25,261 bases of DNA from Tortispora ganteri. Lineage: Eukaryota. The notes below the pieces were generated by a model. It was given only the letters and a program-made list of their open reading frames with translations. It searched no databases and was not told the origin of the DNA. The position numbers and the translations under genes are program-made. Positions 3,260-22,234 of the stretch are shown piece by piece (positions within the stretch are counted from its first letter, which is position 1; each line of letters opens with the position of its first letter). Where the stretch lies: contig PPNB01000028.1 of NCBI GenBank assembly GCA_003707115.1, positions 62,001 through 87,261 on the forward strand, read 5' to 3'.

Positions 3260-4180
3260 ATGGAGATCTCGACATCTATTTCATTCCCGCTGATTTCTAA
3301 CCATTCCTTTAGATATGTTGATTCTTCTCATTTCAAACGACAAAAAACCCGCACCCCTAGAAACCCGACTAGTTGGGACCCTCACGATGACATCCTTTTG
3401 CGCCATTTGAAGGAGCAGCTGAAGCTGGGCTGGAAAGAAATCGCAAGCCATTTTGTAAATAGAACGCCAAATGCATGCCAATTTCGTTGGCGCAGACTCA
3501 TGTCTGGTTCTCTCCGACTTTCCTGTCCGCCAGTCTCTTCGCCTCCTGAAGCCATTCTTCAGGAACTTGGACATTCGGTCAGGGACCTGACTACCAACTC
3601 GTATGGTACAGGTGATCTCGCGGCAGTCACTTCTAACAGACCCAGCACTTCTCGCATCAAGCAGCTTCCACCAAGTCTTTTGGAGACGCAGTTATTGCAG
3701 CAGAGTTCAGAACTCCAGCCCAAAGACAGCAGCGCTGTCTCGAAAGAATCGCCCAGATCCTGGTCAATTGAAGAGGACGAAGTGATTCGCAGGGCTGATT
3801 TAAGAATAGACGAGATATCTGTTTTGCTGCCCAACCGCACAGAGAAGGAGATCCGCGCCCGTATAGAGATCAACGGGTCACTTGCTTTCAACAACCGAGC
3901 TGGCACCAGTACTGCACCCGGTATGGTCGAAAGAAGTACGTCACCGGCCAATTCTGTAGGATCGGCGCCTTCAATTACTAGCGGTGGCACGCGCCCAAGT
4001 ATCGGGAGCAGCGAGTCGTCCAAGTCCACTTCACCTAGACTTCCATGCGAACAACGCGTTTTGCCGCCACCTATATGCCAGCTCCCTTCACCTCCTGGAC
4101 GGGCGTATCCGCAATTGCCTCCAATGAAGGTAATGCTGGACAAAGACGAGCTGCATTCGCTCCCCCCTTCATTCACGTAA
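3260..4180 (+). CDS. DOT6: Myb/SANT transcription factor, Dot6/Tod6 (PAC-binding) family
   Basis: SWDPHDDILLRHLKEQLKLGWKEIASHFVNRTPNACQFRWRRL is the Dot6/Tod6 Myb signature. A second degenerate Myb repeat is present: SWSIEEDEVI..LLPNRTEKEIRARI. Confidence 0.88.
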   Translation: MEISTSISFPLISNHSFRYVDSSHFKRQKTRTPRNPTSWDPHDDILLRHLKEQLKLGWKEIASHFVNRTPNACQFRWRRLMSGSLRLSCPPVSSPPEAILQELGHSVRDLTTNSYGTGDLAAVTSNRPSTSRIKQLPPSLLETQLLQQSSELQPKDSSAVSKESPRSWSIEEDEVIRRADLRIDEISVLLPNRTEKEIRARIEINGSLAFNNRAGTSTAPGMVERSTSPANSVGSAPSITSGGTRPSIGSSESSKSTSPRLPCEQRVLPPPICQLPSPPGRAYPQLPPMKVMLDKDELHSLPPSFT

Positions 4181-4764
4181 GAAACCATGACAATCAGCAA
4201 TGCATACACATGTATCACAGCCTAGAATTTGCGTGATCTGCGGGCCATACTGACCGATATTCGAACATATTTTTTTGACACTTTTTTCTTTTGATTTCAT
4301 TTTATGGATTATCTCCTGGGGTAAACGCATCGCACTGTAAGCAGTATTGTAAGATTAAAGTTCACCATGCTCAATTTTAAGTTGTGCTGCGTTTTGCTAA
4401 CGCCAGTGCAAGCAAGAGTATGTCTAATGCTAACCGAAAGTTTACCAAAAAATGAAACCTAAGAAACATTTACCTTGAATTGTCAATGATTTACTGTGCA
4501 AAACGCCAAAGTATCAGCGTTTCGTTCTCTACGTGATCGTACGATCGCTCAAGTAATACTCAGTTGCTATGGCAATTTACAGACAATAACGTTGAAGCCA
4601 AGTTACGGCTTTAACGTTTTCTCCCTGTTGGACCCTTGACCAGCTTTGATAGCTTGGCAGGTCTACATGTCTTGGACATTCAAGTGTATATAGAGTTTTC
4701 ATGTGTTATCTATCTACTAATACAGACGCAATACTACATCCTGAACTAATCACAGAATACCCTG

Positions 4765-5230: not shown

Positions 5231-8206
5231 ATGCGTTCTGATTCCGGACGAAGAGGGCCTAGAAAGTCGCATACTAGGGGCTATTCTAACACCACTTCCA
5301 CGTATGATCGACACTCTATAGGCATTAATTCAAACGCCTACTACCGCCCTACAGACCCAGGCTCAGGTTCTGTCAAATCGCGCAGAAGCTCTTCAGATCC
5401 TAAACTATACGCCCCGATAAGACCTTCACCACTATCTACTGCTTCCAATGGCATGCCCCTGGAGATATTCGAAAGAATATCAGAATTTCCCCTCTTCAAA
5501 TCCGCCCCTGAGTCTTTTCTACTCGAAGTCGCAGGAAAACTCAGACCCCATCAGGCTGGTCCTGGCGACTCAATCATTATAGAAGGCACTGAGGCAAAAG
5601 CTATGTATTGGATAGTCCGAGGCTCAGTATCCGTCTCTTCTCGTGACGGTGAAAGTATATATTCCACTTTACAACCTGGCTCTTTCTTCGGTGAAATTGG
5701 AATTTTGTTTAACTGCCCAAGAACCGCCACCGTTTCTGCACAGTCTCGCTGCCTACTGGTTGTCCTTACTGCAGAAGCCCTTCATTCAATCCTGCCATCC
5801 TATCCGGACGTCGAGAAATCGCTTCGAAATGAAGCTGAAGTTCGACTTGTACTCACTCAAAAATTTAAAGACAGGAAAAAAGGCCGCTTGAGCTCTGACA
5901 TAAATTCTTCCTCTGCGACAGATTCCAATGATGGTCCTCATCAAGCCACCTTAGCTAAAGTATCTTCGTTCACAGACTCAGAAATACCAGGCAAGCCTAT
6001 ATTTTTGCATGTTTCTCAGGTGACGAGCAGACTAAAAGAATCGCCTTTGTTTAGTCACCTTCCTGACGACGCTTTACACTCGCTGGCTTTGGCAGTAGAG
6101 CCTCGAAGATTTGGTCCCTTTGAAGTGATCCTTCAAGAAGGAACAAGAGGCCAAGCAATATATTTCATCACTGATGGCGAGGTTGAAGTAATTCGTCAAG
6201 GGCTTCTTAAGGCTCTCTCGAGACTTGGTCCAAACACTTATGTTGGTGAAATCGGTTTCTTAGACATGTCCCGCACACGTACCGCAACTGTGCGCACGAT
6301 TTCTGACGTACAGTGCCTATGTCTTTCTAGAAATGCTCTCAATAAAGTCCTTGATAAATACCCTGCCTTGCAAGCGCAAATTCAAGAAACTGCACACTCT
6401 CGCTTACAGGCTTTAATATCTGAAAATAATTCTCAAGCTCTTGAGGGTATACCACCTCAGGAAATGCTTTTGGCTCGAGAATCAGCGTCTTCTCCATCTG
6501 ATTATTCCTTAGGAGTATTACCAGAGCATGAAGAACTTTCGCCAACCGCTATTCCAGCTGACCCCGGCAACATGCCTGAAAATCAAATTCCAGAGGCTGA
6601 CTTAGGGCCTACAGACACATGCACGGTCACTATAAAACGGCCATTTACTGTTGTAGAGCCTGCATCAATACCGCTTGATCCGGATCCATATATCAATGTT
6701 TCTGGTTCAAATGATGCGCAAGATGTGACAAAGACCCGGACACCAGGTCGTCGATCCAGCTTAGCCCCGAAAACAGATGACAATGAGCAAGACTCATCGA
6801 CTAAAGATAGGCCTGAAGAGCGCGATATCATGATGGCTGACAATTCAGATGTTTCAACTATAGATACTCAATCTTCCGAAAGTGTACCTCTTCTCTACAA
6901 CTCTGCGTTTAGTATGAGCGGTGATATTAAACAGGAGGAACAGTCTTTTTTCTATGAGAGATCTGGGTCAGTGTTTTCCGTGGTTGATAATGTTACTTTT
7001 TCAAAACGGCCTAGGCTTATTAATTCGTTCTCATCAATGACCAAAGACATCGATATGCATTCTAACCAGCCTTTGATTAATTCAAATTTATTAGTACTGG
7101 CAAAGATTTTCTCGCACTTGCCCCTATTGGATAAGATCAGGAAGCAAAGAGTATGCAGGACGTGGAAAAAAGTCCTTCTGACAGCTCCAGAAGTTGTGGA
7201 AGTTCTTGACTTGTCTCCTTATAACACAGTCGTTTACGACACGATAATACCACACGTTGTTACATTTATGAATGGACGAAAACCTCGTTACATTGATATA
7301 TCTAACTGCTTCCATCTTTCTGATGCAGGATTTAGAATGCTAGCATCTAATTGCATTGGACCAGCAACAATAGTGCTGAAAATGAAATCAGTATGGGATA
7401 TTAGTGGAAGTGCAATCACAGAAATTGCAGCCAAAGCCCGAGGACTAGCTATCGAAGAACTTGATTTCTCAAACTGCCGCAAGATTGGCGACAGCAGTCT
7501 TGCAAGAATAATTGGATGGAATTATCCTGGGCTTCTTGCTGGACTGGAAGGCAAGAAGGGTCAAGACCGGATAGAACTATTAGAACAGCTTGCTGCCGAA
7601 TCAGAGGAAGCTGGCATTGGGTTTCTTGGCTGCACTAGCCTGCGACGTCTCACGTTATCATACTGCAAACATATATCAGACAGATCTATGCATCATATAT
7701 CACTTCATGCTTCTCATCGTCTGGAGCATTTGGATCTTACGAGATGCACCACTATTACGGACCATGGATTTGGATACTGGGCTATGAAACCGTTTCCGAA
7801 CCTGCGAAGCATATGTTTGTCCGATTGTACGTTCCTGACGGACAATGCGATAGTTTCTCTGGCAGGCGCTGCTAAGAATCTTGAGCATCTGAACTTGAAT
7901 TTCTGTTGTGCGCTCTCGGATGTAGCAGTTGAAGTATTAGCGCTCGGATGCAGTAACCTGAAGTCACTGAATCTGTCATTTTGTGGATCGGCGGTCTCCG
8001 ATAGCAGTTTGAAAACGGTTGCCTTACACTTGCTTAACTTAGAGTACCTGAGCGTACGAGGCTGTGTACGCGTTACCGGTATTGGTGTTGACACAATCCT
8101 AGGAGGCTGTATTATGTTAAAAAAGTTCAATGTGTCTCAATGTCGGAACTTGTCGACATACAACAAGGACCTGGCGAAGAGACAAGGAGTTGAAATGATT
8201 TTTTGA
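5231..8206 (+). CDS. Protein with two cyclic-nucleotide-binding domains, an F-box and leucine-rich repeats (probable ATG start 5231, 991 aa)
   Basis: CNB1 has FGEIGILFNCPRTATV and CNB2 has VGEIGFLDMSRTRTATV. F-box: LAKIFSHLPLLDKIRKQRVCRTWKKVL. Cys-containing LRRs such as LxLSYCKHISD, LDLTRCTTITD, LNLNFCCALSD. The track's GTG start at 5159 is less likely. Confidence 0.9.
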   Translation: MRSDSGRRGPRKSHTRGYSNTTSTYDRHSIGINSNAYYRPTDPGSGSVKSRRSSSDPKLYAPIRPSPLSTASNGMPLEIFERISEFPLFKSAPESFLLEVAGKLRPHQAGPGDSIIIEGTEAKAMYWIVRGSVSVSSRDGESIYSTLQPGSFFGEIGILFNCPRTATVSAQSRCLLVVLTAEALHSILPSYPDVEKSLRNEAEVRLVLTQKFKDRKKGRLSSDINSSSATDSNDGPHQATLAKVSSFTDSEIPGKPIFLHVSQVTSRLKESPLFSHLPDDALHSLALAVEPRRFGPFEVILQEGTRGQAIYFITDGEVEVIRQGLLKALSRLGPNTYVGEIGFLDMSRTRTATVRTISDVQCLCLSRNALNKVLDKYPALQAQIQETAHSRLQALISENNSQALEGIPPQEMLLARESASSPSDYSLGVLPEHEELSPTAIPADPGNMPENQIPEADLGPTDTCTVTIKRPFTVVEPASIPLDPDPYINVSGSNDAQDVTKTRTPGRRSSLAPKTDDNEQDSSTKDRPEERDIMMADNSDVSTIDTQSSESVPLLYNSAFSMSGDIKQEEQSFFYERSGSVFSVVDNVTFSKRPRLINSFSSMTKDIDMHSNQPLINSNLLVLAKIFSHLPLLDKIRKQRVCRTWKKVLLTAPEVVEVLDLSPYNTVVYDTIIPHVVTFMNGRKPRYIDISNCFHLSDAGFRMLASNCIGPATIVLKMKSVWDISGSAITEIAAKARGLAIEELDFSNCRKIGDSSLARIIGWNYPGLLAGLEGKKGQDRIELLEQLAAESEEAGIGFLGCTSLRRLTLSYCKHISDRSMHHISLHASHRLEHLDLTRCTTITDHGFGYWAMKPFPNLRSICLSDCTFLTDNAIVSLAGAAKNLEHLNLNFCCALSDVAVEVLALGCSNLKSLNLSFCGSAVSDSSLKTVALHLLNLEYLSVRGCVRVTGIGVDTILGGCIMLKKFNVSQCRNLSTYNKDLAKRQGVEMIF

Positions 8207-10164: not shown

Positions 10165-10857
10165 ATGCCTAAAAGCAAGAGAGCGAAAGTGGTGTCTTTG
10201 ACGAAAACAGACAAAAAGGGCAAGGAGAACAAAGAGAGAATATTCAATGAAATTAGAGATGCAATAGACCAGTATGCATATATCTGGGTGTTCAGCGTTG
10301 ATAACATGCGAAATACTTTTGTGAAAGACATCAGATCAGACTGGGTTGGTAGCAAGATTTTTATGAGTAAAAGCAAAGTGATGGCTAAAGCGCTCGGAAG
10401 TACGCCAGAAGAAGAGTATGCAGATAATGTGCATGAACTAGCAGAGCAGATCAAAGGTGAAGTTGGTCTACTTTTCACGGACGAGAAAGTCGATGTAGTG
10501 AAGGAATATTTTGAGTCTTTTTCGAAACTCGATTTTGCACGCGCCGGCACCAAGAGCAATATTGATTTCACAATTCCTGAAGGAGTTGTGTATTCTCGCG
10601 GCGGACAGATTCCTTATGAGGATGACATACCATTAGCGCACATGCTAGAGCCCACGATCCGACAACTGGGCGCGCCAACTCGATTCAAAGACGGTAAAGT
10701 GTTCTTAGACCAACCATATGAGGTATGCAAATCAGGACAGGTGCTTGATAGTCGCCAGACTAGACTGTTGAAACAGTTTGGTGTTGTCAGTGCAGAATTC
10801 AAAATAATGCTTAAGGCTTTCTATGACAAGGCTGCCCAGAAAACAGAAATCTTATAG
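10165..10857 (+). CDS. MRT4: Ribosome assembly factor Mrt4 (uL10/P0 paralogue)
   Basis: MPKSKRAKVVSLTKTDKKGKENKE, NMRNTF, VMAKALG, GEVGLLFTD, QTRLLKQFG. Confidence 0.96.
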   Translation: MPKSKRAKVVSLTKTDKKGKENKERIFNEIRDAIDQYAYIWVFSVDNMRNTFVKDIRSDWVGSKIFMSKSKVMAKALGSTPEEEYADNVHELAEQIKGEVGLLFTDEKVDVVKEYFESFSKLDFARAGTKSNIDFTIPEGVVYSRGGQIPYEDDIPLAHMLEPTIRQLGAPTRFKDGKVFLDQPYEVCKSGQVLDSRQTRLLKQFGVVSAEFKIMLKAFYDKAAQKTEIL

Positions 10858-10867
10858 GTAGCGAGAA

Positions 10868-11737
10868 TTAATACTTTCTTGGACGTTTAGACTCTATTTC
10901 GCCATCCATATCAGCGTAGCTCCTTCTAGATCGAGGATCTATAGGTTTTGGAGCATCGTAAGAGACTTCTGCACCGTAGAGTGAGGAGAAATCCGGTTCC
11001 TGATACTGTTGTTGCGGCCGTTGTTCGTACTGTCTGTCGTACTGTCTGTCGTATTGGCGATCGTAAGGATTTCTATAATGCTGAGGCTCGATTTGCGACC
11101 TTCTTTGGTCAAGAACGGATTTAGGCAGTCTTGGGGGTCTGAACTGTCGACCGAGCAGGATATCTTTAGTGTAGTGTCTGCCACCGAGTCCACCACCTAG
11201 ACGGCGTGGTTTCCAGTCATTGATGACACGTGCGCGCTCGTAGTCGACGAGGACGGGGCGGTCGAGAACTTTTGTTCCATTATGCGTTCTTACGGCTGTA
11301 TCTGCTGATGAAGGGTGTTCAAATACAATAAACGCGTAACCGCGCGAAGGGTTGTCTGGTTTGTGAGTATTGCGTATCAGCTTGATCGAGACTATATCAC
11401 CACAGTCCGAGAAAGCATTACGCAGATCTGATTCAGTGGCCGAGTAGGAAAGTCTAGATACAATAACTGTTGATGCTGGATCTGTAGAAGAATCTGCGCT
11501 TTTGAAAGGGTCATATTCTGCAGCTTGACGAGATTCGTCTAGCTTGTGTTTCTCGCTCTTTGTGATTTGGCGTGACGGTGTAGTTGACTTGTGCGCATCG
11601 AGTAACGAAACCAGACTTGATATACCTGAAATTTCTTTTGTCTTTCTGTTTTTAAGACTTGTATCAATAGGTGGCAGCTGTTTTAGCGGCGGTCCTGGCT
11701 GAAAGAGAAGTTCTATGTCTTTTGGCAGATTTTCCAT
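10868..11737 (-). CDS. SNP1: U1 snRNP 70K protein
   Basis: N-terminal LP..I..LF.P.PPL motif, an RRM with SRGYAFIVF, and VLVDYERARVINDWKPRRLGGGLGGR. Confidence 0.93.
   Translation of the reverse strand: MENLPKDIELLFQPGPPLKQLPPIDTSLKNRKTKEISGISSLVSLLDAHKSTTPSRQITKSEKHKLDESRQAAEYDPFKSADSSTDPASTVIVSRLSYSATESDLRNAFSDCGDIVSIKLIRNTHKPDNPSRGYAFIVFEHPSSADTAVRTHNGTKVLDRPVLVDYERARVINDWKPRRLGGGLGGRHYTKDILLGRQFRPPRLPKSVLDQRRSQIEPQHYRNPYDRQYDRQYDRQYEQRPQQQYQEPDFSSLYGAEVSYDAPKPIDPRSRRSYADMDGEIESKRPRKY
11027..11065 (-). repeat. In-frame 12-bp coding repeat in SNP1 (YDRQ x3)
   Basis: gtactgtctgtc twice plus a degenerate third copy, encoding YDRQYDRQYDRQY. Confidence 0.8.
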
Positions 11738-11818
11738 AGGTGAAGGTGGGTATGAAAGGTAAAGGTGAAGGAGGGAGATGAAGCTTGTTTGTCAAGGAAC
11801 ACTTAGTTTTCGACAAAC

Positions 11819-12310
11819 ATGAATCCACAAAATCTCAAGGGTCTTAAAGCCGAATTTGTAAATAAACTATTCCAAAATAAATTGAAAGGCAGTGTCAAGG
11901 TCCATGATGCAAATCTACTTACAGTCAGGTTCTTTCCTCTGAAAGTCATGCGACCAAAGATCATGAACTATACCAAATCTATTCCAGCAATTGTACCATA
12001 TTTTGGACGTAAATCTGAAGTAGGTCAATTCTACAGATCATCAGCAGTAGCACGGTCAAAATTACGCAAAGTACTTAGATCAAGGTTCTGTCATTTCTAT
12101 AATGCTGACTCGTCAGCGCAGCCAGGCATCTACGTCCTACGGATCAACAGCATCATCAAACTCCGCTCAACAGCAGAACTCGACTCAGAAATAAAGAGTT
12201 TCATGGACGCTGCTAAGAAATTATCAAATGAACCAAAACAAGATACAACTTCCGACAAAGATATAGAAATGCAGCACCTAATTCGCAAAATACAAACAGG
12301 TCAATTATGA
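11819..12310 (+). CDS. Basic 163-aa hypothetical protein, possibly similar to the bacterial RNase P protein (RnpA)
   Basis: ATG ORF that fills the gap between SNP1 and MRPL51. SAVARSKLRKVLRSRF..GIYVLRI..STAELDSEI resembles the RnpA RNR helix, beta4 and alpha3. The gene is likely real; the product call is tentative. Confidence 0.6.
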   Translation: MNPQNLKGLKAEFVNKLFQNKLKGSVKVHDANLLTVRFFPLKVMRPKIMNYTKSIPAIVPYFGRKSEVGQFYRSSAVARSKLRKVLRSRFCHFYNADSSAQPGIYVLRINSIIKLRSTAELDSEIKSFMDAAKKLSNEPKQDTTSDKDIEMQHLIRKIQTGQL

Positions 12311-12402: not shown

Positions 12403-12831
12403 ATGCCGCTTAAACCCGTCAAGGCTGTATCGATCGCCAGAAACGGCTATAAGAAGTTTGTCATTCCGTGCAAGCGACTGACGTTCCAATACTGCAACTG
12501 GGGCGGTAGCTCGGCCGGCATGAGAGACTTCATCTCGACCCATCTCAAGTCATTCGCTGCCGAAAACCCTTCAACGCATTTCCAGATAGTTCGCAAGAAA
12601 GGTCACCCTACAATAAGAGGCGAGTATATAAATGGAAGAGAAAAGGTAATATGCACGAGAAATATGAATACAAAGGAGATCCTCCAAAAGGCTAATCTGC
12701 TTAAAGCTTCCAGCGGTGAAAAACTCTCCAGAACCTCTATAAACCGTCCAGTAAAATCACTGAACCCGTCCGTTCGTGGTATCTGGTCTCCTCTGCACGC
12801 TACGCTACAAAGACCGATCTACAAGATATAA
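12403..12831 (+). CDS. MRPL51: Mitochondrial ribosomal protein mL43 (MrpL51), ATG start 12403, 142 aa
   Basis: ARNG..KFVIPCKRLTFQYCNWGGSSAGMRDF, HPTIRGEYINGREKVIC, VKSLNPSVRGIWSPLH. Confidence 0.94.
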   Translation: MPLKPVKAVSIARNGYKKFVIPCKRLTFQYCNWGGSSAGMRDFISTHLKSFAAENPSTHFQIVRKKGHPTIRGEYINGREKVICTRNMNTKEILQKANLLKASSGEKLSRTSINRPVKSLNPSVRGIWSPLHATLQRPIYKI

Positions 12832-12854
12832 TGACAATGACAACTTCTCAATTA

Positions 12855-14519
12855 TTATGACTCCGTAAACGTTTTAAGAAAACTCAGTAGATTCTTCTCT
12901 CCCTTATTATTATTGCTTCCTGTATTGCCTGGTAACTGATCATTGTCATGGTTATACATGCCTCCGTTCAGCGGCACCGGTTCAGTGCTTTCGTTCCATC
13001 TCTGTATGGACGCTGCATTGTAGCCGTACTCGCTCTGTGGCTTAACAGGCGCTGGTCTCTCCATATACCCTGGCTGCGGCCCCGGTGAACATGTACTTCC
13101 ACGCATACTATGCACACTATACATGCCAGGAGTGCCACTTCCATTACCGAAATTCGTAAACTGGTATGCTTCCGGTGTCACGCTGTCTGACTCTGCGTAC
13201 TGGTACACTGCAGGCGTTCCGGCCGCGTGCGTTCCCGAACTATAGTGGTACTGGTGAGTCATGGACATGGCCATGTCATTGCTATAGCTGGCGTCCGGCG
13301 CGAAAGTAAACTCAGACCGAAGTCCATTCATGTGATTATCTGGAGTTTTCGCCAGTAGTGTGTTCAGCAGCTTCTTTGAGTTCTTCGTAATCGCGCTAGA
13401 CCGTCTTAAAGCCGCAGATGGCATAGGTGGCGGAGCTTCTGGCGACGCCAGGAGATGCGATAACAAGCTGCTTGCATCTGGTGCAGAATAACTAGGCGCA
13501 GATAGGTTGTACTTTGCTGTGACTGGTTCTACGGGAGCCCCATTACTACTTTGCAAGGTGCCATCGTCTAGTTTGAGCATTTCCACCTGACGGTTAATAT
13601 CGATAGGTGAAGGAGAATCGGTGATATCCTTCAATTCCTTTGAGGCATTCGCACTAGACCCGTGAATGAGGTTTAGTAAAGCCTTTTCATCAGAGTTATG
13701 CGTGTCAATGTCATTTGTCGAAGATTTCAGCATACTGAGAAGAGTAGCCGATTTATCTTTATCTGCGTAACTGCGATCAGACTTCTTCTTCTTGTCGGAC
13801 TTATTTTCAGTCTTTGAGGCTATAAACTTCAGCAATGGGGGTGTAAACCGGGAGAGAGCGGAGTCTTTGCCTCTGGGCACGAGTTGCGCCAAGTCAGCCA
13901 ATCGGAACCAGCCGACTGCGGATATTTCTTTGCGAGTTTGTGGTTGGAATGAAGTATTTGCGTCGACTCCAACGACTATGTAAAGCCGTGTACTGCGGCC
14001 GCGCAAATTTAGATCAATGTAGTCTTCTTTCTTGAGGTAGGGTGATATGTCAAACCCGATTTCCTCTTTGACTTCACGGATTGCGCATTCGTGGTCAGGC
14101 TCATCTTTGTTGATTTTACCTTTGGGGAAAGCCCAGCTAGAAGACTTGTTCCAGCCTTTGACAAGCAACGCCTGTCGCATGTCTGGAGTGAGGATTATAG
14201 CGCCACGCACGGGGACGGAAGCCTTGTAGGCCATGAAGTGGAGGTAGGCGTCTTTCGTTTTGTTACCCAGATGCGAGAGACCGGGGCATTTCTGCAAGGT
14301 GAGGGAACAGAACGCTTTGAAGTCGAGTTTTCGAAGTTTAGGATTCTGTTCGCGAGCAAAATCAAGGTAGAACCAATGTGCTTCTTCTATGAGGAAACCT
14401 ACGCGCTCAACTGATTGAATTTCTTCTGCAGGCGTATTGACGACGAATCTGGCCCAAAGGTCGTCGAGGACTTCGTTGAACGAGCATTGTTCATATGAGA
14501 ATGAACTAATCAGTGACAT
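12855..14519 (-). CDS. DCP2: mRNA decapping enzyme catalytic subunit
   Basis: Box A (LDDLWARFVVNTP..EEAHWFYLDF), Nudix box (FPKGKINKDEPDHECAIREVKEEIGFD), PQTRKEIS, and a disordered tail with LLxxL helical motifs. Confidence 0.95.
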   Translation of the reverse strand: MSLISSFSYEQCSFNEVLDDLWARFVVNTPAEEIQSVERVGFLIEEAHWFYLDFAREQNPKLRKLDFKAFCSLTLQKCPGLSHLGNKTKDAYLHFMAYKASVPVRGAIILTPDMRQALLVKGWNKSSSWAFPKGKINKDEPDHECAIREVKEEIGFDISPYLKKEDYIDLNLRGRSTRLYIVVGVDANTSFQPQTRKEISAVGWFRLADLAQLVPRGKDSALSRFTPPLLKFIASKTENKSDKKKKSDRSYADKDKSATLLSMLKSSTNDIDTHNSDEKALLNLIHGSSANASKELKDITDSPSPIDINRQVEMLKLDDGTLQSSNGAPVEPVTAKYNLSAPSYSAPDASSLLSHLLASPEAPPPMPSAALRRSSAITKNSKKLLNTLLAKTPDNHMNGLRSEFTFAPDASYSNDMAMSMTHQYHYSSGTHAAGTPAVYQYAESDSVTPEAYQFTNFGNGSGTPGMYSVHSMRGSTCSPGPQPGYMERPAPVKPQSEYGYNAASIQRWNESTEPVPLNGGMYNHDNDQLPGNTGSNNNKGEKNLLSFLKTFTES

Positions 14520-14973: not shown

Positions 14974-15630
14974 ATGGGAGGAATACTCAGTAAGTTTGTT
15001 GTGGGCTATGTAAGTGCATTTTATCTGCGGCAACACAATAACAAGGATCAGCGACTAACTGTGCTTATAGGCGGCTAAGAAGACGATCGGCGAGTGGGGT
15101 GGAGAAGACCCGTATTTCGAGGAAGTAAGTATATAGTAAGCAGTGTCAGACACTATTTACTAACTATACAGGTTGTGAATTCAAACGGCGTCAAGACAAA
15201 GCGCTCAAAAGGTGTGCCAACTGGTGTATCAGAGTATGATGCCAAGATCCTTAAAAAGGCGCGCAGACGGTCATGGTGGCTAGATATGGGATTCAACTTA
15301 GGATGTGGCAGATTCGGATGGACAGCAATTATAGGAATTCTGCCACTTGTTGGCGATATCATTAATGCGTGGCTCAGTTGGAAATTTATCACGCTTTGCG
15401 AGAAAGTGAACGGAGGCCTACCTGCCGACATCAAATCAAAAATGGTCATAAATGTCCTCATTGACATTGGTCTCGGTTTGATTCCGTTGTTAGGCACAAT
15501 TTTTTCGGCTGTGTACAAATGCAACTCTAGAAACTGCCTAATACTGGAGAAGCATTTGCTGCGCCGTGTTGGTCAGCTTCAGCCGGGTGTAAAGGTGTCT
15601 AATCAAGCAGAAACTCAAAAGCTGCGTTAG
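14974..15630 (+). CDS. DUF4112-family membrane protein, three exons: join(14974..15009,15071..15124,15172..15630), 182 aa
   Basis: Intron 1 (15010-15070): GTAAGT..GACTAAC..TAG. Intron 2 (15125-15171): GTAAGT..TACTAAC..CAG. Both are phase 0. Spliced N-terminus MGGILSKFVVGYAAKKTIGEWGGEDPYFEEVV; domain motifs RFGWTAIIGILPLVGD and GLIPLLG..YKCNSRN. Confidence 0.88.
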
Positions 15631-16567
15631 TAATATCTCTGTTTGAGCATGCATAACAAAGTTTATCGTTAGATTCGTTGCGAGTTTTCCACTCTGTAGG
15701 CGGATCAACTGTAATACCGTCTTTCCATGCATCTGGGTCGTTGTATATTTGTGCTTTACACAATCGGCAGGTTTTTGTCGATTCATCGCCAGTAGTCACA
15801 GGTTTAAGTTTTTCTGCTGTACGTACAACCGTAGAAACGATCGACGGGAACCCTTCACTGATATCTTCAAAGTATTTCTGTACAAGTTGACTAATGTCCA
15901 TTGATCTGACGGTGTTCGGTAGCGCGGGTTTGGGCACTACTAGACGCTCAAGTTCTGGCGACTGCAGCCGCAGTAGATCAAAAATCTCTGTGCGATGTAG
16001 GTCTGCTAGGGGACACAGTCTGTCTATGAGATGCGGCACCTGACTGCCGCGGCCGCGTGCGGTCAACGCCAGCACATTCTCAGCAAGACCCGTCATAGAG
16101 GAGCCGTATACGATATGGTCGCAGTGAGCTTCTTTGGCAAGCCGAGGAAGTGCATGTGCATGCACTGCTGTGTTTATTATGTCAGCCTTGTCTGCAAGTG
16201 TGGTGATCTTTGCCGGATCAAGGTACTCGGTCAGAGAGCAGGAGTATGTCTGGAGATCCAAATGAAGTGGCGGCATTTCCGCGGTCACAACAATCAATAA
16301 CACTAGTCTAAATCCTGCACGACCATGTATACGTATCTGAGAATCATGTAGATGTTTGACAGCACTCAATAAAGCCAAAGAGCTTGCACTATAGGAAATC
16401 GCAAGACCGAGTATCGGTACAGGCTGGTTTGTCTTATAGTTGACCTTAAACGCTTCAAGTCGTTTTCTGACCTTTCCATGTACATAATGCAAAAAGCAAT
16501 CTTTACATAGCGCCTGATCACGACACGTGTAAGTTGGCGTAGAGGAGCAACGAGCACAAACTGTCAT
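15599..16567 (-). CDS. NCS2: Cytoplasmic tRNA 2-thiolation protein 2 (Ctu2/Ncs2)
   Basis: N-terminal CxxC..CxxCF, degenerate PP-loop (SYSASSLALL), SMTGLAENVLALTARGRG, FPSIVSTVVRTAEKL, C-terminal CxxC..LCYAC. Confidence 0.9.
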   Translation of the reverse strand: MTVCARCSSTPTYTCRDQALCKDCFLHYVHGKVRKRLEAFKVNYKTNQPVPILGLAISYSASSLALLSAVKHLHDSQIRIHGRAGFRLVLLIVVTAEMPPLHLDLQTYSCSLTEYLDPAKITTLADKADIINTAVHAHALPRLAKEAHCDHIVYGSSMTGLAENVLALTARGRGSQVPHLIDRLCPLADLHRTEIFDLLRLQSPELERLVVPKPALPNTVRSMDISQLVQKYFEDISEGFPSIVSTVVRTAEKLKPVTTGDESTKTCRLCKAQIYNDPDAWKDGITVDPPTEWKTRNESNDKLCYACSNRDITNAAFEFLLD

Positions 16568-17098: not shown

Positions 17099-17698
17099 AT
17101 GTCTCAAGTGATAGTCATTACTGGCGAGGCTTCGTCGATCGAAGCTATTGTCAATGTAATTGGCGATCCGTGTAGACTTAAAAACAAATATTTCGATATC
17201 GAGGTCACCCTCGTCTATGACGTGTGGGACAACGACACTGCCGCTTCCGCATGGTACGATATGCTTATGCAGAGTGGCGGCCTGGAAGAAATTGTACCTC
17301 ACGTAGCGGCATTCCTACACGTTTATTCGGGTGCAAACGCAAAATCGCGCGCTCGTGTGTACACAGAAGTCGCTGCGAAATGCCAAGAACTTAATGACAA
17401 CATGCTCTTCCTCGCAATGGATGTCACCGATATTTGCAATACAGATAACACAGAACCTGAAGATGATGAAGAATTGTCGTCGTATGGATTATACTCAATT
17501 AATTCGCTCAGTGAACTCACTCAAACCTTAGAAACGTTCCCTTGGAACGGGATCCAGAGACCAGAACACGACGATATTGACATAATCGCATTGTCACAAG
17601 AAATGCAAGACATACGCAATGACCAGACCATGTCTCTCGAAGCGAAAAAACTACGAGCCGATGATATTATTAGAAGATTAGATCGCTCATATTATTAG
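17099..17698 (+). CDS. IRC6: Irc6/p34 (adaptin-binding) family-like protein, shortened
   Basis: KNKYFDIEVTLVYD resembles the Irc6/AAGAB (T/N)KYY..V....D motif; L..TLETFPW; C-terminal helical region ending MSLEAKKLRADDII. Confidence 0.65.
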   Translation: MSQVIVITGEASSIEAIVNVIGDPCRLKNKYFDIEVTLVYDVWDNDTAASAWYDMLMQSGGLEEIVPHVAAFLHVYSGANAKSRARVYTEVAAKCQELNDNMLFLAMDVTDICNTDNTEPEDDEELSSYGLYSINSLSELTQTLETFPWNGIQRPEHDDIDIIALSQEMQDIRNDQTMSLEAKKLRADDIIRRLDRSYY

Positions 17699-19543: not shown

Positions 19544-22234
19544 TTACTTCCACCATCTCGGGCAGACCTTGCACGTCTCTGGCTTCTTGGGCTGCTTACC
19601 CATAACAAGCTTCTTCGCTTGTTCCTGGCATTCGCGTAATCGTTGTCCAATCCATCCATCGAACTTGCTCATATCTTTCCATTCCCGCCATGCAGCTTCC
19701 TTGACCTCGGCTACTCTCAACTTCATTTGTTCCGCACTTTTCCTACCGTAAAACTCTAGCCCTCGCGACAATCGTTTGAAAGCTACATCGCAGTATCCTA
19801 CCGCTGCTCGCCCGTACACATTCGACGAAGACTTCGCTACCTTGTAACCTTCGGTTATTGCGTCTTTACTCTTCGTCAGAATACCTGACCCGATTATCTG
19901 GGCTTCGGCAAGCATATCAGCACTCTTCTGCTCAATAATTGGTTTCCATCGACGCCAACTTGATGCCCCTGCTGATGCTAACTCTGCACACCAGTACTTC
20001 GTGGTTTGCTGTCTCTCTATGGAAGTCTCTTTCATTTGTTGCACTTTCGATTTCACTATAACCTTCCATTTCTCGTAAAGAGCAGCAGCATGCTTTTGCC
20101 CAGTTATAACCTGTGGCCTAGCGTATTCCTGCACCTTGCCCAATAGATCCGCAATTTTTTGCGTTTGATGCTCATAGAATTTGTTGGCTTTTTGAAAAGT
20201 TTCACAAACAACCTCTGGTGCATTTGTTGGCTGGTCCATAGGTGTAATCATCGGTGCATTCGCGCTTGTTGTCGCTTTTGAGTAGTATGAACCAGCATAT
20301 CTACTCATAGCATCACAGTACTCGCCGACTATCTCTTTGATATTATACTTCGAGATTAGATTCCATGACGATTCCTCGATAGCAATAATCAGTGTGCTAA
20401 TTGTATCCATGATATAAGTTGCAACAATACCCAGCTTCGAAATCGGTAAATTCAATAAGCCTGAAAATCCTTCGGTGATCTGGTTAAGAGTACTTCCTTC
20501 TGGTTTGTTTGCAGATTCTGTTAATGCTTTGATACCATTCACTTTTTGATCAATGCTGCAAGATTTCAACACAAATGGTTTACAACTGTCGATTTTGGAT
20601 TTCATCAGTACTGAGACACAATACCCATGCAGATTGTGGTCCAGAGGTTTCTGAGTTCTTATTAGAATCAGCTGATATGCTTTCAAGGTCACTGATACAG
20701 CCATCGTGATAGCGTTGTTGTCTGGAGTAAATGTAACTGCGCTAGCTTTCATTCCACATGCGGGCGGCATTTGACATCCATGAACTCTAACGAACAGTTT
20801 ATCCTCATCAATGGCATATACTGATATTGGTGACTTTGCATCATTTGATGTCCTGCAAGATAGATTCTCGGTCTCTCTTATGATTCTCTTGGCTTTTCCG
20901 TAAACATAAGCATTGGTTAGCTTCTCGAGAAAGATGTCAAATATCTCAGGACTCATTTCAGGTACCTTTTTGGCACCTGAAGCCCATCTATCTTCAATTA
21001 GCTTGACTTCAGCCTTGTCACAATCTCTTTGCACAACTCTATTGCTGGGCTTTGTAAGATCGGTTGATGTTTTAACCAGGGCCGTGCTAGTTTCAACGAT
21101 AGCCTTTTCCGCGACAGTATTAACTAGCGAGTTTGAAACATCCTTTCTCAAAATCAGGCTTGTATTGACGGAGGTGTATATAATATCTGTACTTTCGGCA
21201 TGCATTGCCGAAATTTCGCGAAAGTTTTGATACATTCTTGCGGAGTACAAGATCAGCATCAAGGAAACGAATATGGCGGAAGCGGTAAGGTAGAGAAAAT
21301 TTCCATTTATTCTGTTGTGAGTTTCATGTGTTTTGGCCTGAGCGCTTTTCACTGGTACGCCAATAGAATCATCTGAAGGTTTATTAGGATTGTCTGAAAG
21401 AGTGCTATTCGAAAGGACAGAACTCGAAGAAGTACTCTCTACTGGTGTCAGCATATGCTTCAAAATCCTATTAAGCATTCGGTTAGGGAGCTGCATAAAC
21501 AAAGAAAAAGTAATTGGAAATCTAGCGGCGACTGTCAGGTCGATTTTTGCTGATTGCGAGTTATCGATTTCTATGCAAGTATAGACTGAATCCGAGAGGA
21601 GGGGAATCGCAGATAGAGAATCAATGTCTTCATATAATGATACGCACAAAGTCGGCACATCTGATTCAGCTTGAGAAAGGTTCGGCTTGTCTCCTATGAT
21701 AATGATTTTCAACTGGGGATTGGACTCGACGAAAACGAGTTTGGTTTGGGAGACTTCGGCAACAGAAAGAAGTTTTGCCTTTGTACGGTCAAGAATCGCT
21801 GTAGTATCTGCAAAGCTTAGACTAAGAGGTTCAATTGCAACCTTAATGGTGTTTGGAAGCATTTCTGAAGCAATTACGTATCGCAGCGAGTTCCACACAG
21901 GACGAGAGTTGGGCTGGTCTAGTATTGCGAGTTTCTGTTGAATCTGGGGAGACACTGGAGCAATGATCTTCCTCAAAGAAGCGGATGTCAATTGCGGCAA
22001 AATAGCAAAAGTTGATATGGAAGATTCTAGGTCAATTTCTGGCATCTGCAGACCTACAAGATCAACAGATTCAGACATTTCGTCTGTAGTTATACTCATT
22101 ATTGATCTGGTGACTAGTTCGAAATCATCAGCAGACGACTGCTGTGAATAGTTGCCTTCATCTGAATCAGATAAGTTCACAGACCAAAGACTTCCGTTCT
22201 CACTAATACTGTCTTCACTTTTCCGTCTTTCCAT
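19544..22234 (-). CDS. Large uncharacterised single-pass membrane protein (probable ATG start 22234, 896 aa)
   Basis: 2.7-kb ORF with an acidic Ser-rich N-terminus, one clear transmembrane segment (FLYLTASAIFVSLMLILYSA, about 21240-21299), a Cys-containing region and long amphipathic helices at the C-terminus. Confidence 0.85.
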   Translation of the reverse strand: MERRKSEDSISENGSLWSVNLSDSDEGNYSQQSSADDFELVTRSIMSITTDEMSESVDLVGLQMPEIDLESSISTFAILPQLTSASLRKIIAPVSPQIQQKLAILDQPNSRPVWNSLRYVIASEMLPNTIKVAIEPLSLSFADTTAILDRTKAKLLSVAEVSQTKLVFVESNPQLKIIIIGDKPNLSQAESDVPTLCVSLYEDIDSLSAIPLLSDSVYTCIEIDNSQSAKIDLTVAARFPITFSLFMQLPNRMLNRILKHMLTPVESTSSSSVLSNSTLSDNPNKPSDDSIGVPVKSAQAKTHETHNRINGNFLYLTASAIFVSLMLILYSARMYQNFREISAMHAESTDIIYTSVNTSLILRKDVSNSLVNTVAEKAIVETSTALVKTSTDLTKPSNRVVQRDCDKAEVKLIEDRWASGAKKVPEMSPEIFDIFLEKLTNAYVYGKAKRIIRETENLSCRTSNDAKSPISVYAIDEDKLFVRVHGCQMPPACGMKASAVTFTPDNNAITMAVSVTLKAYQLILIRTQKPLDHNLHGYCVSVLMKSKIDSCKPFVLKSCSIDQKVNGIKALTESANKPEGSTLNQITEGFSGLLNLPISKLGIVATYIMDTISTLIIAIEESSWNLISKYNIKEIVGEYCDAMSRYAGSYYSKATTSANAPMITPMDQPTNAPEVVCETFQKANKFYEHQTQKIADLLGKVQEYARPQVITGQKHAAALYEKWKVIVKSKVQQMKETSIERQQTTKYWCAELASAGASSWRRWKPIIEQKSADMLAEAQIIGSGILTKSKDAITEGYKVAKSSSNVYGRAAVGYCDVAFKRLSRGLEFYGRKSAEQMKLRVAEVKEAAWREWKDMSKFDGWIGQRLRECQEQAKKLVMGKQPKKPETCKVCPRWWK

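Follow-up and report, generated by a model that had tools for sequence, protein, structure and literature searches.

The protein side of organellar RNase P has few described members. According to the available text of PMC3790967, a protein has been identified for RNA-based organellar RNase P in one case only, that of Rpm2, the proteins of the other fungal mitochondrial enzymes are unidentified and additional proteins may be required, and the mitochondrial RNase P RNAs of budding yeasts are highly degenerate. The same source agrees with the background given in an earlier note on the DNA studied here, which had stated that yeast mitochondria can encode an RNase P RNA (RPM1) and that Rpm2 is its partner in S. 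cerevisiae. In the portions available of two sources, RPM2 is absent outside S. cerevisiae and its close relatives (PMC3790967, PMC6097661). As far as these sources go, the confinement of RPM2 to the relatives of S. cerevisiae, together with the lack of other identified proteins, leaves the role of protein partner vacant in the remaining fungi. A precedent is found in the green alga O. tauri, where a nuclear bacterial-type RNase P protein complements an E. coli rnpA(ts) strain (PMC4919922, available text), i.e., a eukaryote can keep such a protein in its nucleus for organellar ribozymes. The helicase Hera provides a precedent of another kind, as its putative RNase P motif proved dispensable according to the text available (PMC2566870). 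No description of a fungal RnpA was found in the literature searched.

Here a 163-aa open reading frame (ORF) of a budding yeast is compared with these systems. The reading that we favour takes the ORF as a real gene whose product, an RnpA-type protein of high divergence, serves a mitochondrial RNase P ribozyme, and we give this reading a probability of about one half. The resemblance to bacterial RnpA (PF00825; structures 1a6f, 1d6t, 1nz0, and 3q1q) lies in a small and strongly basic protein with a collinear order of elements, among them a basic helix 2 (A-V-x-R followed by K/R), a hydrophobic strand with YVL, and a further helix that is amphipathic. It differs from bacterial RnpA in falling below the thresholds of the curated profiles, in having RSK for RNR, in lacking the RxG element as well as the Asp of strand 4, in insertions at residues 40–55 and 91–102 and an additional helix within a tail of 25 residues, and in being encoded by a nuclear, eukaryotic gene away from rpmH. 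The O. tauri protein is, by its description in the available text, recognisably bacterial-like, whereas the yeast ORF is beyond profile detection (PMC4919922). With Rpm2, a 105-kDa protein of S. cerevisiae, the ORF would share the proposed role as partner of an mtDNA-encoded RNase P RNA; the two are unrelated in size and sequence, and Rpm2 is, as far as the sources cited above extend, restricted to S. cerevisiae and its relatives (PMC3790967, PMC6097661).

The locus and its coding potential

The window, i.e., the whole stretch of 25,261 nucleotides analysed here, comes from the nuclear genome of a budding yeast, and scans for tRNAs and Rfam families gave no match in it. The ORF and the genes around it are:

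10165–10857, + strand, Mrt4-type gene (Pfam)
10868..11737, - strand, SNP1 / U1-70K, divergent neighbour (U1snRNP70_N 1.8e-13; RRM_1 4.5e-17)
11819..12310, + strand, the candidate ORF, 163 aa and stop, ATG to TGA, candidate diverged RnpA-type protein
12403..12831, + strand, mL43 (MRPL51 type), mitoribosomal, downstream of the ORF on the same strand (PF05047 E 6.6e-19)
12855–14519, - strand, DCP2 (Pfam)
15599–16567, - strand, NCS2/CTU2 (Pfam)

The start codons of SNP1 and the ORF are divergent with 81 bases between them (11738–11818), and the ORF fills the 665-base gap between SNP1 and mL43. The mitoribosomal gene that the earlier note had placed directly downstream is indeed there: mL43 begins 92 bases after the end of the ORF and is matched to S. 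cerevisiae mitoribosome chains (3j6b_4, E 2e-43; 5mrc_4, E 4.5e-43) and to a Neurospora mitoribosome chain (E 5.5e-36). The locus is very compact, with only 23 bases (12832–12854) from the stop of mL43 to the convergent stop of DCP2. In S. cerevisiae SNP1 is adjoined by YIL060W, and an identification of the ORF with YIL060W on the grounds of SNP1 synteny was dropped, since the available text describes YIL060W as a doubtful, genus-restricted ORF of a few Saccharomyces species (bioRxiv 10.1101/2023.03.09.531963). The Puf3-type motif TGTANATA occurs seven times in the window against 3.3 expected and was set aside as a regulatory sign; the copy at 11857–11864 was left unused because it lies inside the ORF and does not have a 3′ UTR position. 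Elsewhere in the window, a 991-aa protein (5231–8206, + strand) has two cyclic-nucleotide-binding domains (E 1.6e-37) and, towards its C-terminus, leucine-rich repeats, a pairing that is uncommon in budding yeast. Pfam gave no family at E ≤ 0.001 for ORFs of 895 aa (19544–22234, - strand), 318 aa (197–1156, - strand), and 199 aa (17099–17698, + strand).

The ORF is probably a real coding gene. A codon-frame log-likelihood trained on 15 neighbouring genes, each left out in turn when scored, gives the ORF 0.191 bits/codon, within the range of these genes (0.131–0.438), and its five other frames are negative. Either the specificity of the test is incomplete or the strand assignment at one place merits a second look, as a 209-aa ORF (3559–4188, - strand) antisense to a Myb-domain gene (3260–4180, + strand) has a gene-like 0.217 bits/codon. 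The window holds 18 ORFs of at least 120 aa, and only two of them overlap another, both antisense to it; the candidate overlaps none. Over 4501 bases the window was compared with two public DNA assemblies, which may share a single origin or be the data from which the window was taken. They depart from it at five positions (12007, 12702, 13758, 14138, and 14157; one A>C and four T>C) and show no indels. Only one of these changes falls within the ORF in the second assembly, 12007 A>C, and it is synonymous, with Gly encoded by GGA and GGC alike. No RNA run covering this region was listed. The recognition value of the ORF in the ESM Atlas is 3097, a value reached by 9 of 100 shuffled or reversed sequences.

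The product is the small, very basic protein that the earlier note described, with 163 aa, a pI of 10.2, and 30 Lys and Arg against 13 Asp and Glu. Its core, residues 1–138, has a pI of 10.4 and 26 Lys and Arg against 9 Asp and Glu, and the size and charge of RnpA, a strongly basic domain of about 110–140 aa, are thus found in the ORF. A presequence is not evident in the Lys-rich N-terminus because of the low hydrophobic moment (0.15–0.40) and the presence of E12, which agrees with the caveat raised earlier that there is no obvious long presequence.

Comparison of the protein with RnpA

The ORF may instead encode a lineage-restricted small basic protein of no RnpA ancestry, e.g., a fast-evolving mitoribosomal, nucleolar, or RNA-binding protein, with a likeness to RnpA that arose by convergence or chance. 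We regard this as unlikely, and it is weighed here along with the evidence from each kind of comparison.

Standard homology searches are part of the evidence in favour of such an unrelated protein. Neither Pfam nor NCBIfam has a family for the ORF at E ≤ 10, and the match to the Pfam family Ribonuclease_P (PF00825) by which the earlier note had proposed to check its claim was not obtained even at this threshold. The profile of Rpm2 (PF08579, large PPR-type) and the Pfam families Pop5/Rpp14, Pop4, Rpr2, Pop7, and Pop8 were likewise unmatched by the 163-aa ORF at E ≤ 10, and none of the latter families is among the Atlas neighbours listed. A phmmer search of the PDB returned only a collagenase (E 0.75), a library of 5.8 billion clusters gave no relative at E ≤ 0.01 or at E ≤ 10 among 44 candidates, and 61 pattern matches in metagenome contigs included no relative. 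The one phmmer match among 1.84 billion representatives (E 8e-4), a 1626-aa tandem-repeat protein, was rejected as spurious with 0 matched stretches. An orthologue was not found in any library searched; as four out of four tested proteins of this yeast's genome are absent from a 15-billion collection, such blanks say little on the gene content of sister species.

With the ORF as query 121 Pseudomonadota genomes gave 15 weak matches (E 0.04–0.75, few candidates being scored per genome), and 0 of the 15 lay at the mapped rnpA position of the same genomes, which again is in favour of an unrelated basic protein. With an alpha-like RnpA profile, the PDB yields every one of its 11 distinct RnpA sequences (E 1e-12 to 2e-24), whose bacterial sources differ widely. 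Bacterial RnpA is trivially found by profile while the ORF is not, and the ORF is therefore far outside the diversity of bacterial RnpA. Among proteins of at least 210 aa the RnpA profile had 352 matches. Of these, 120 were listed, and they resemble long bacterial forms except for one nematode-labelled record; no usable fungal sequence was among them. The nematode-labelled record (Ditylenchus destructor, 375 aa, P0075) carries L34 and RnpA domains, i.e., the bacterial rpmH-rnpA order as one protein, and is likely to represent bacterial DNA in that assembly.

More sensitive alignment gave a different result for the two halves of the protein. The RnpA profile used was made from 50 sequences of the domain taken out of Pseudomonadota genomes, and all positive evidence for RnpA comes from the one yeast sequence. 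With hmmsearch --max, residues 75–98 were placed on model positions 52–75, which is the AVxRNRIKR helix, with 4.6 bits and a per-sequence E of 0.0017, a score matched by 32 of 3001 shuffles; hhalign placed residues 75–125 on model positions 56–104 (P 0.015) with a probability of only 3%, as would be expected of an unrelated protein. A model-global profile alignment of our own design, tolerant of insertions in the ORF, gave a modest z of 2.3–3.3 for the whole domain, where held-out true RnpA sequences gave 4.2–24; this z was reached by one to two of 47 natural decoy windows and the raw score by none of the 47. Helix 2, strand 4, and helix 3, which make up the C half (residues 73–140), gave z 4.4–5.0 in the comparison with shuffles and z 3.7–4.5 when the natural decoys were added. 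The C-half score was reached by 0 of 1000 shuffles, its z and raw score by 0 of 87 windows from the 15 neighbouring yeast proteins and the score by 0 of 74 bacterial flank windows, i.e., by none of 161 decoys in all, figures that are somewhat optimistic because the split into halves was chosen after the local match had been seen. The reversed ORF gave z -0.7 to 0.4 with the C-half profile, and the C-half signal persisted with disjoint subsets of RnpA (20 alpha-like sequences, z 3.4–3.9; the other 30, z 2.5–3.1). Control profiles of L34 and YidD, small proteins of the same loci, gave z -0.1 to 1.0 with the ORF. A C half that scores above all 161 decoys and above two basic-protein controls argues against an unrelated basic protein. 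For the N half (helix 1 and strands 1–3, the leader-binding cleft) there was no RnpA profile signal (z -0.5 to 1.6), its score being equalled by 28 to 682 of 500–1000 shuffles, and an N half that is not RnpA-like is what an unrelated protein would have. At the level of sequence, helix 2, strand 4, and helix 3 are recognisably RnpA-like, beyond chance. The earlier note had seen the RnpA pattern from end to end, and of this the C-terminal half has held while the N-terminal half has not.

The Atlas places the whole ORF protein among RnpA clusters, and residues 1–138 alone give the same list of neighbours. PF00825 is carried by 28 of the 30 nearest clusters, to be read against a calibration in which one third of shuffled proteins get 10 out of 10 matches of the same family. 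The first cluster is a eukaryotic one from Zoopagomycota (77 members, hypothetical proteins with a 254-aa representative, 82% of members with PF00825). Its score is 0.91, where 0.9 is reached by a tenth or fewer of shuffled proteins, and 172 of 256 features are shared, where at least 170 are found for 9 of 10 same-family first matches but for only 1–2 of 10 chance or distant ones. It is followed by two RnpA clusters of candidate-phyla bacteria and by a 136-aa Ascomycota cluster without a name (0.89). The Zoopagomycota proteins are thus fungal and nearest to the ORF; they differ in being mostly recognised by PF00825, as the ORF is not, and the two are compared by language-model features only. 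The rates for shuffled proteins are in favour of an unrelated basic protein, whereas the 172 shared features and the predominance of RnpA among the neighbours, rather than ribosomal or other basic families, speak against it.

The elements of the ORF and the RnpA elements to which they would correspond are, all on the + strand:

11843..11875, LKAEFVNKLFQ (residues 9–19), proposed helix 1, placed by the collinear MAFFT alignment only; the leader-binding cleft side in RnpA
11891..11935, SVKVHD (25–30) to LLTVRFF (33–39), proposed strands 1 and 2; strands in the AF2 models, profile signal absent
11987..12013, AIVPYFGRK (57–65), proposed strand 3, with K65 in the invariant K column of a 47-row alignment
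12041..12088, SAVARSKLRKVLRSRF (75–90), RNR-like basic helix 2, aligned by hmmsearch --max and hhalign
12125..12145, GIYVLRI (103–109), proposed strand 4, with YVL aligned to the DYVLIAR strand
12167..12214, STAELDSEIKSFMDAA (117–132), proposed helix 3; helix 118–137 in both AF2 runs and part of the C-half match
12233..12307, polar tail (139–163), with an extra helix 146–160 predicted in both AF2 runs and no RnpA counterpart

The peptides quoted in the earlier note were all found at the positions that it implied, and the B. subtilis RnpA strings that it gave for comparison are correct by the 1a6f alignment. The end-to-end collinearity speaks against an unrelated protein, but it is a weak argument because it comes from the MAFFT alignment, and MAFFT yields a collinear order regardless. 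Identity to RnpA is 12–21% in the 47-row alignment, and no RnpA row of the alignment covers residues 139–163. Nine RnpA columns are invariant or nearly so; four of them are kept in the ORF (K65, A76, R79, and V106), and in one the replacement is conservative, with K84 where the family has R. The RxG element is lost, with A57 for the near-invariant R and V59 for the near-invariant G, and the near-invariant Asp of strand 4 is absent. In helix 2, A76, V77, and R79 are kept, N is replaced by S80 and two R by K81 and K84; the divergence of RNR to RSK that had been noted earlier is thus seen at R79, S80, and K81. The strict RNR motif (A-V-x-R-N-R-x-K/R-R) is not present while the basic character is kept, and the ORF is not filed under PF00825 because of this motif and the negative profile test. 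The loss of key near-invariant residues fits an unrelated basic protein, as does the case of Hera, a putative RNase P motif that, in the text available, turned out to be dispensable (PMC2566870).

The single-sequence AlphaFold model has a pLDDT of 40 and is unusable, and RnpA is absent among the 50 fold-search matches listed; the secondary structure predicted in this model comes in the order helix, strand, strand, …, helix, strand, helix, which counts in favour of RnpA. In an AF2 model seeded with the RnpA alignment the pLDDT is 79.7 and the elements are ordered as in RnpA, with one more helix at the C-terminus, and with Foldseek RnpA chains come out on top (6d1r, E 0.01, TM 0.72 on the target, rmsd 2.9). 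The seeded run is circular as the alignment imposes the fold, and it indicates compatibility with RnpA only. The helix 1 region is helical in both runs (residues 3–19 in the single-sequence and 11–18 in the MSA-guided one), and both predict strands 1 and 2 (24–30 and 33–38; 26–30 and 34–40, respectively) and strand 4 (105–109; 103–109).

Taken as a whole the identification with RnpA proposed in the earlier note stands in part: it is backed by the Atlas neighbours and by a C half that scores above decoys, L34, and YidD, and it is not backed by Pfam or NCBIfam at E ≤ 10. The protein probably works like RnpA and it may descend from RnpA. Common descent with RnpA, the fold of the N half, mitochondrial location, an RNA partner, and activity are all matters that we infer only.

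Function, remaining alternatives, and meaning

A protein derived from RnpA may also have been repurposed, e.g., as a chaperone of RNA in mitochondria or a factor in assembly or processing, with RNase P using Rpm2-type or other proteins. The loss of the RNR Asn and of the strand-4 Asp would agree with this, as would the extra C-terminal helix that is predicted and the degenerate RNase P RNAs of budding yeasts, in which, going by the available text, the classical contact sites for RnpA may be gone (PMC3790967). Nothing is directly contrary to such a repurposing; it requires the same unproven homology plus a change of function, and the basic residues of helix 2 are retained, so that we consider it improbable. 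Very improbable is a chance open frame or young unselected gene in the SNP1-mL43 spacer that makes no functional protein: the failure to find homologues in any library searched, the gene-like score of the antisense ORF at 3559–4188 and the doubtful, genus-restricted YIL060W beside SNP1 in S. cerevisiae (bioRxiv 10.1101/2023.03.09.531963, available text) are what it has in its favour, and it is opposed by an ORF that stands alone in a window where overlaps are few and antisense, and that fills its gap, by a codon score in the range of genes with all other frames negative, by the Atlas recognition value, and by a sole assembly difference that is synonymous.

If the ORF encodes a diverged RnpA-type protein, as we favour, it would be imported into mitochondria, where the basic helix at residues 75–90 (A76, R79, K81, R83, K84, R87, and R89) would bind the RNase P RNA encoded in the mtDNA at its catalytic core. 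The 5′ leader of mitochondrial pre-tRNAs would be held, as in bacterial RnpA, in a cleft that the sheet forms together with the N-terminal helix. In this way the affinity for substrate and Mg2+ might be raised for a ribozyme that would be unable to work alone.

It is tempting to extend this to budding yeasts outside the Rpm2 clade and perhaps to a wider part of the Ascomycota. In these, an endosymbiont-derived RnpA that profiles do not detect would still be in use as the protein subunit of a two-part mitochondrial RNase P of bacterial type, and the 136-aa Ascomycota cluster of the Atlas would belong to the same family. We put this forward tentatively and with somewhat less than even confidence.

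The evidence is suggestive only, and a candidate RnpA could explain tRNA trimming in the mitochondria of these yeasts. If the reading for budding yeasts is true, the long-missing protein partner of the fungal mitochondrial rnpB RNAs would have been identified. Should the ORF prove to function as RnpA, the mitochondrial RNase P of fungi would be an enzyme of bacterial type that has been kept since endosymbiosis. It would also follow that RnpA can diverge so far that Pfam misses it, and its apparent absence from eukaryotes may then be an artefact of detection.
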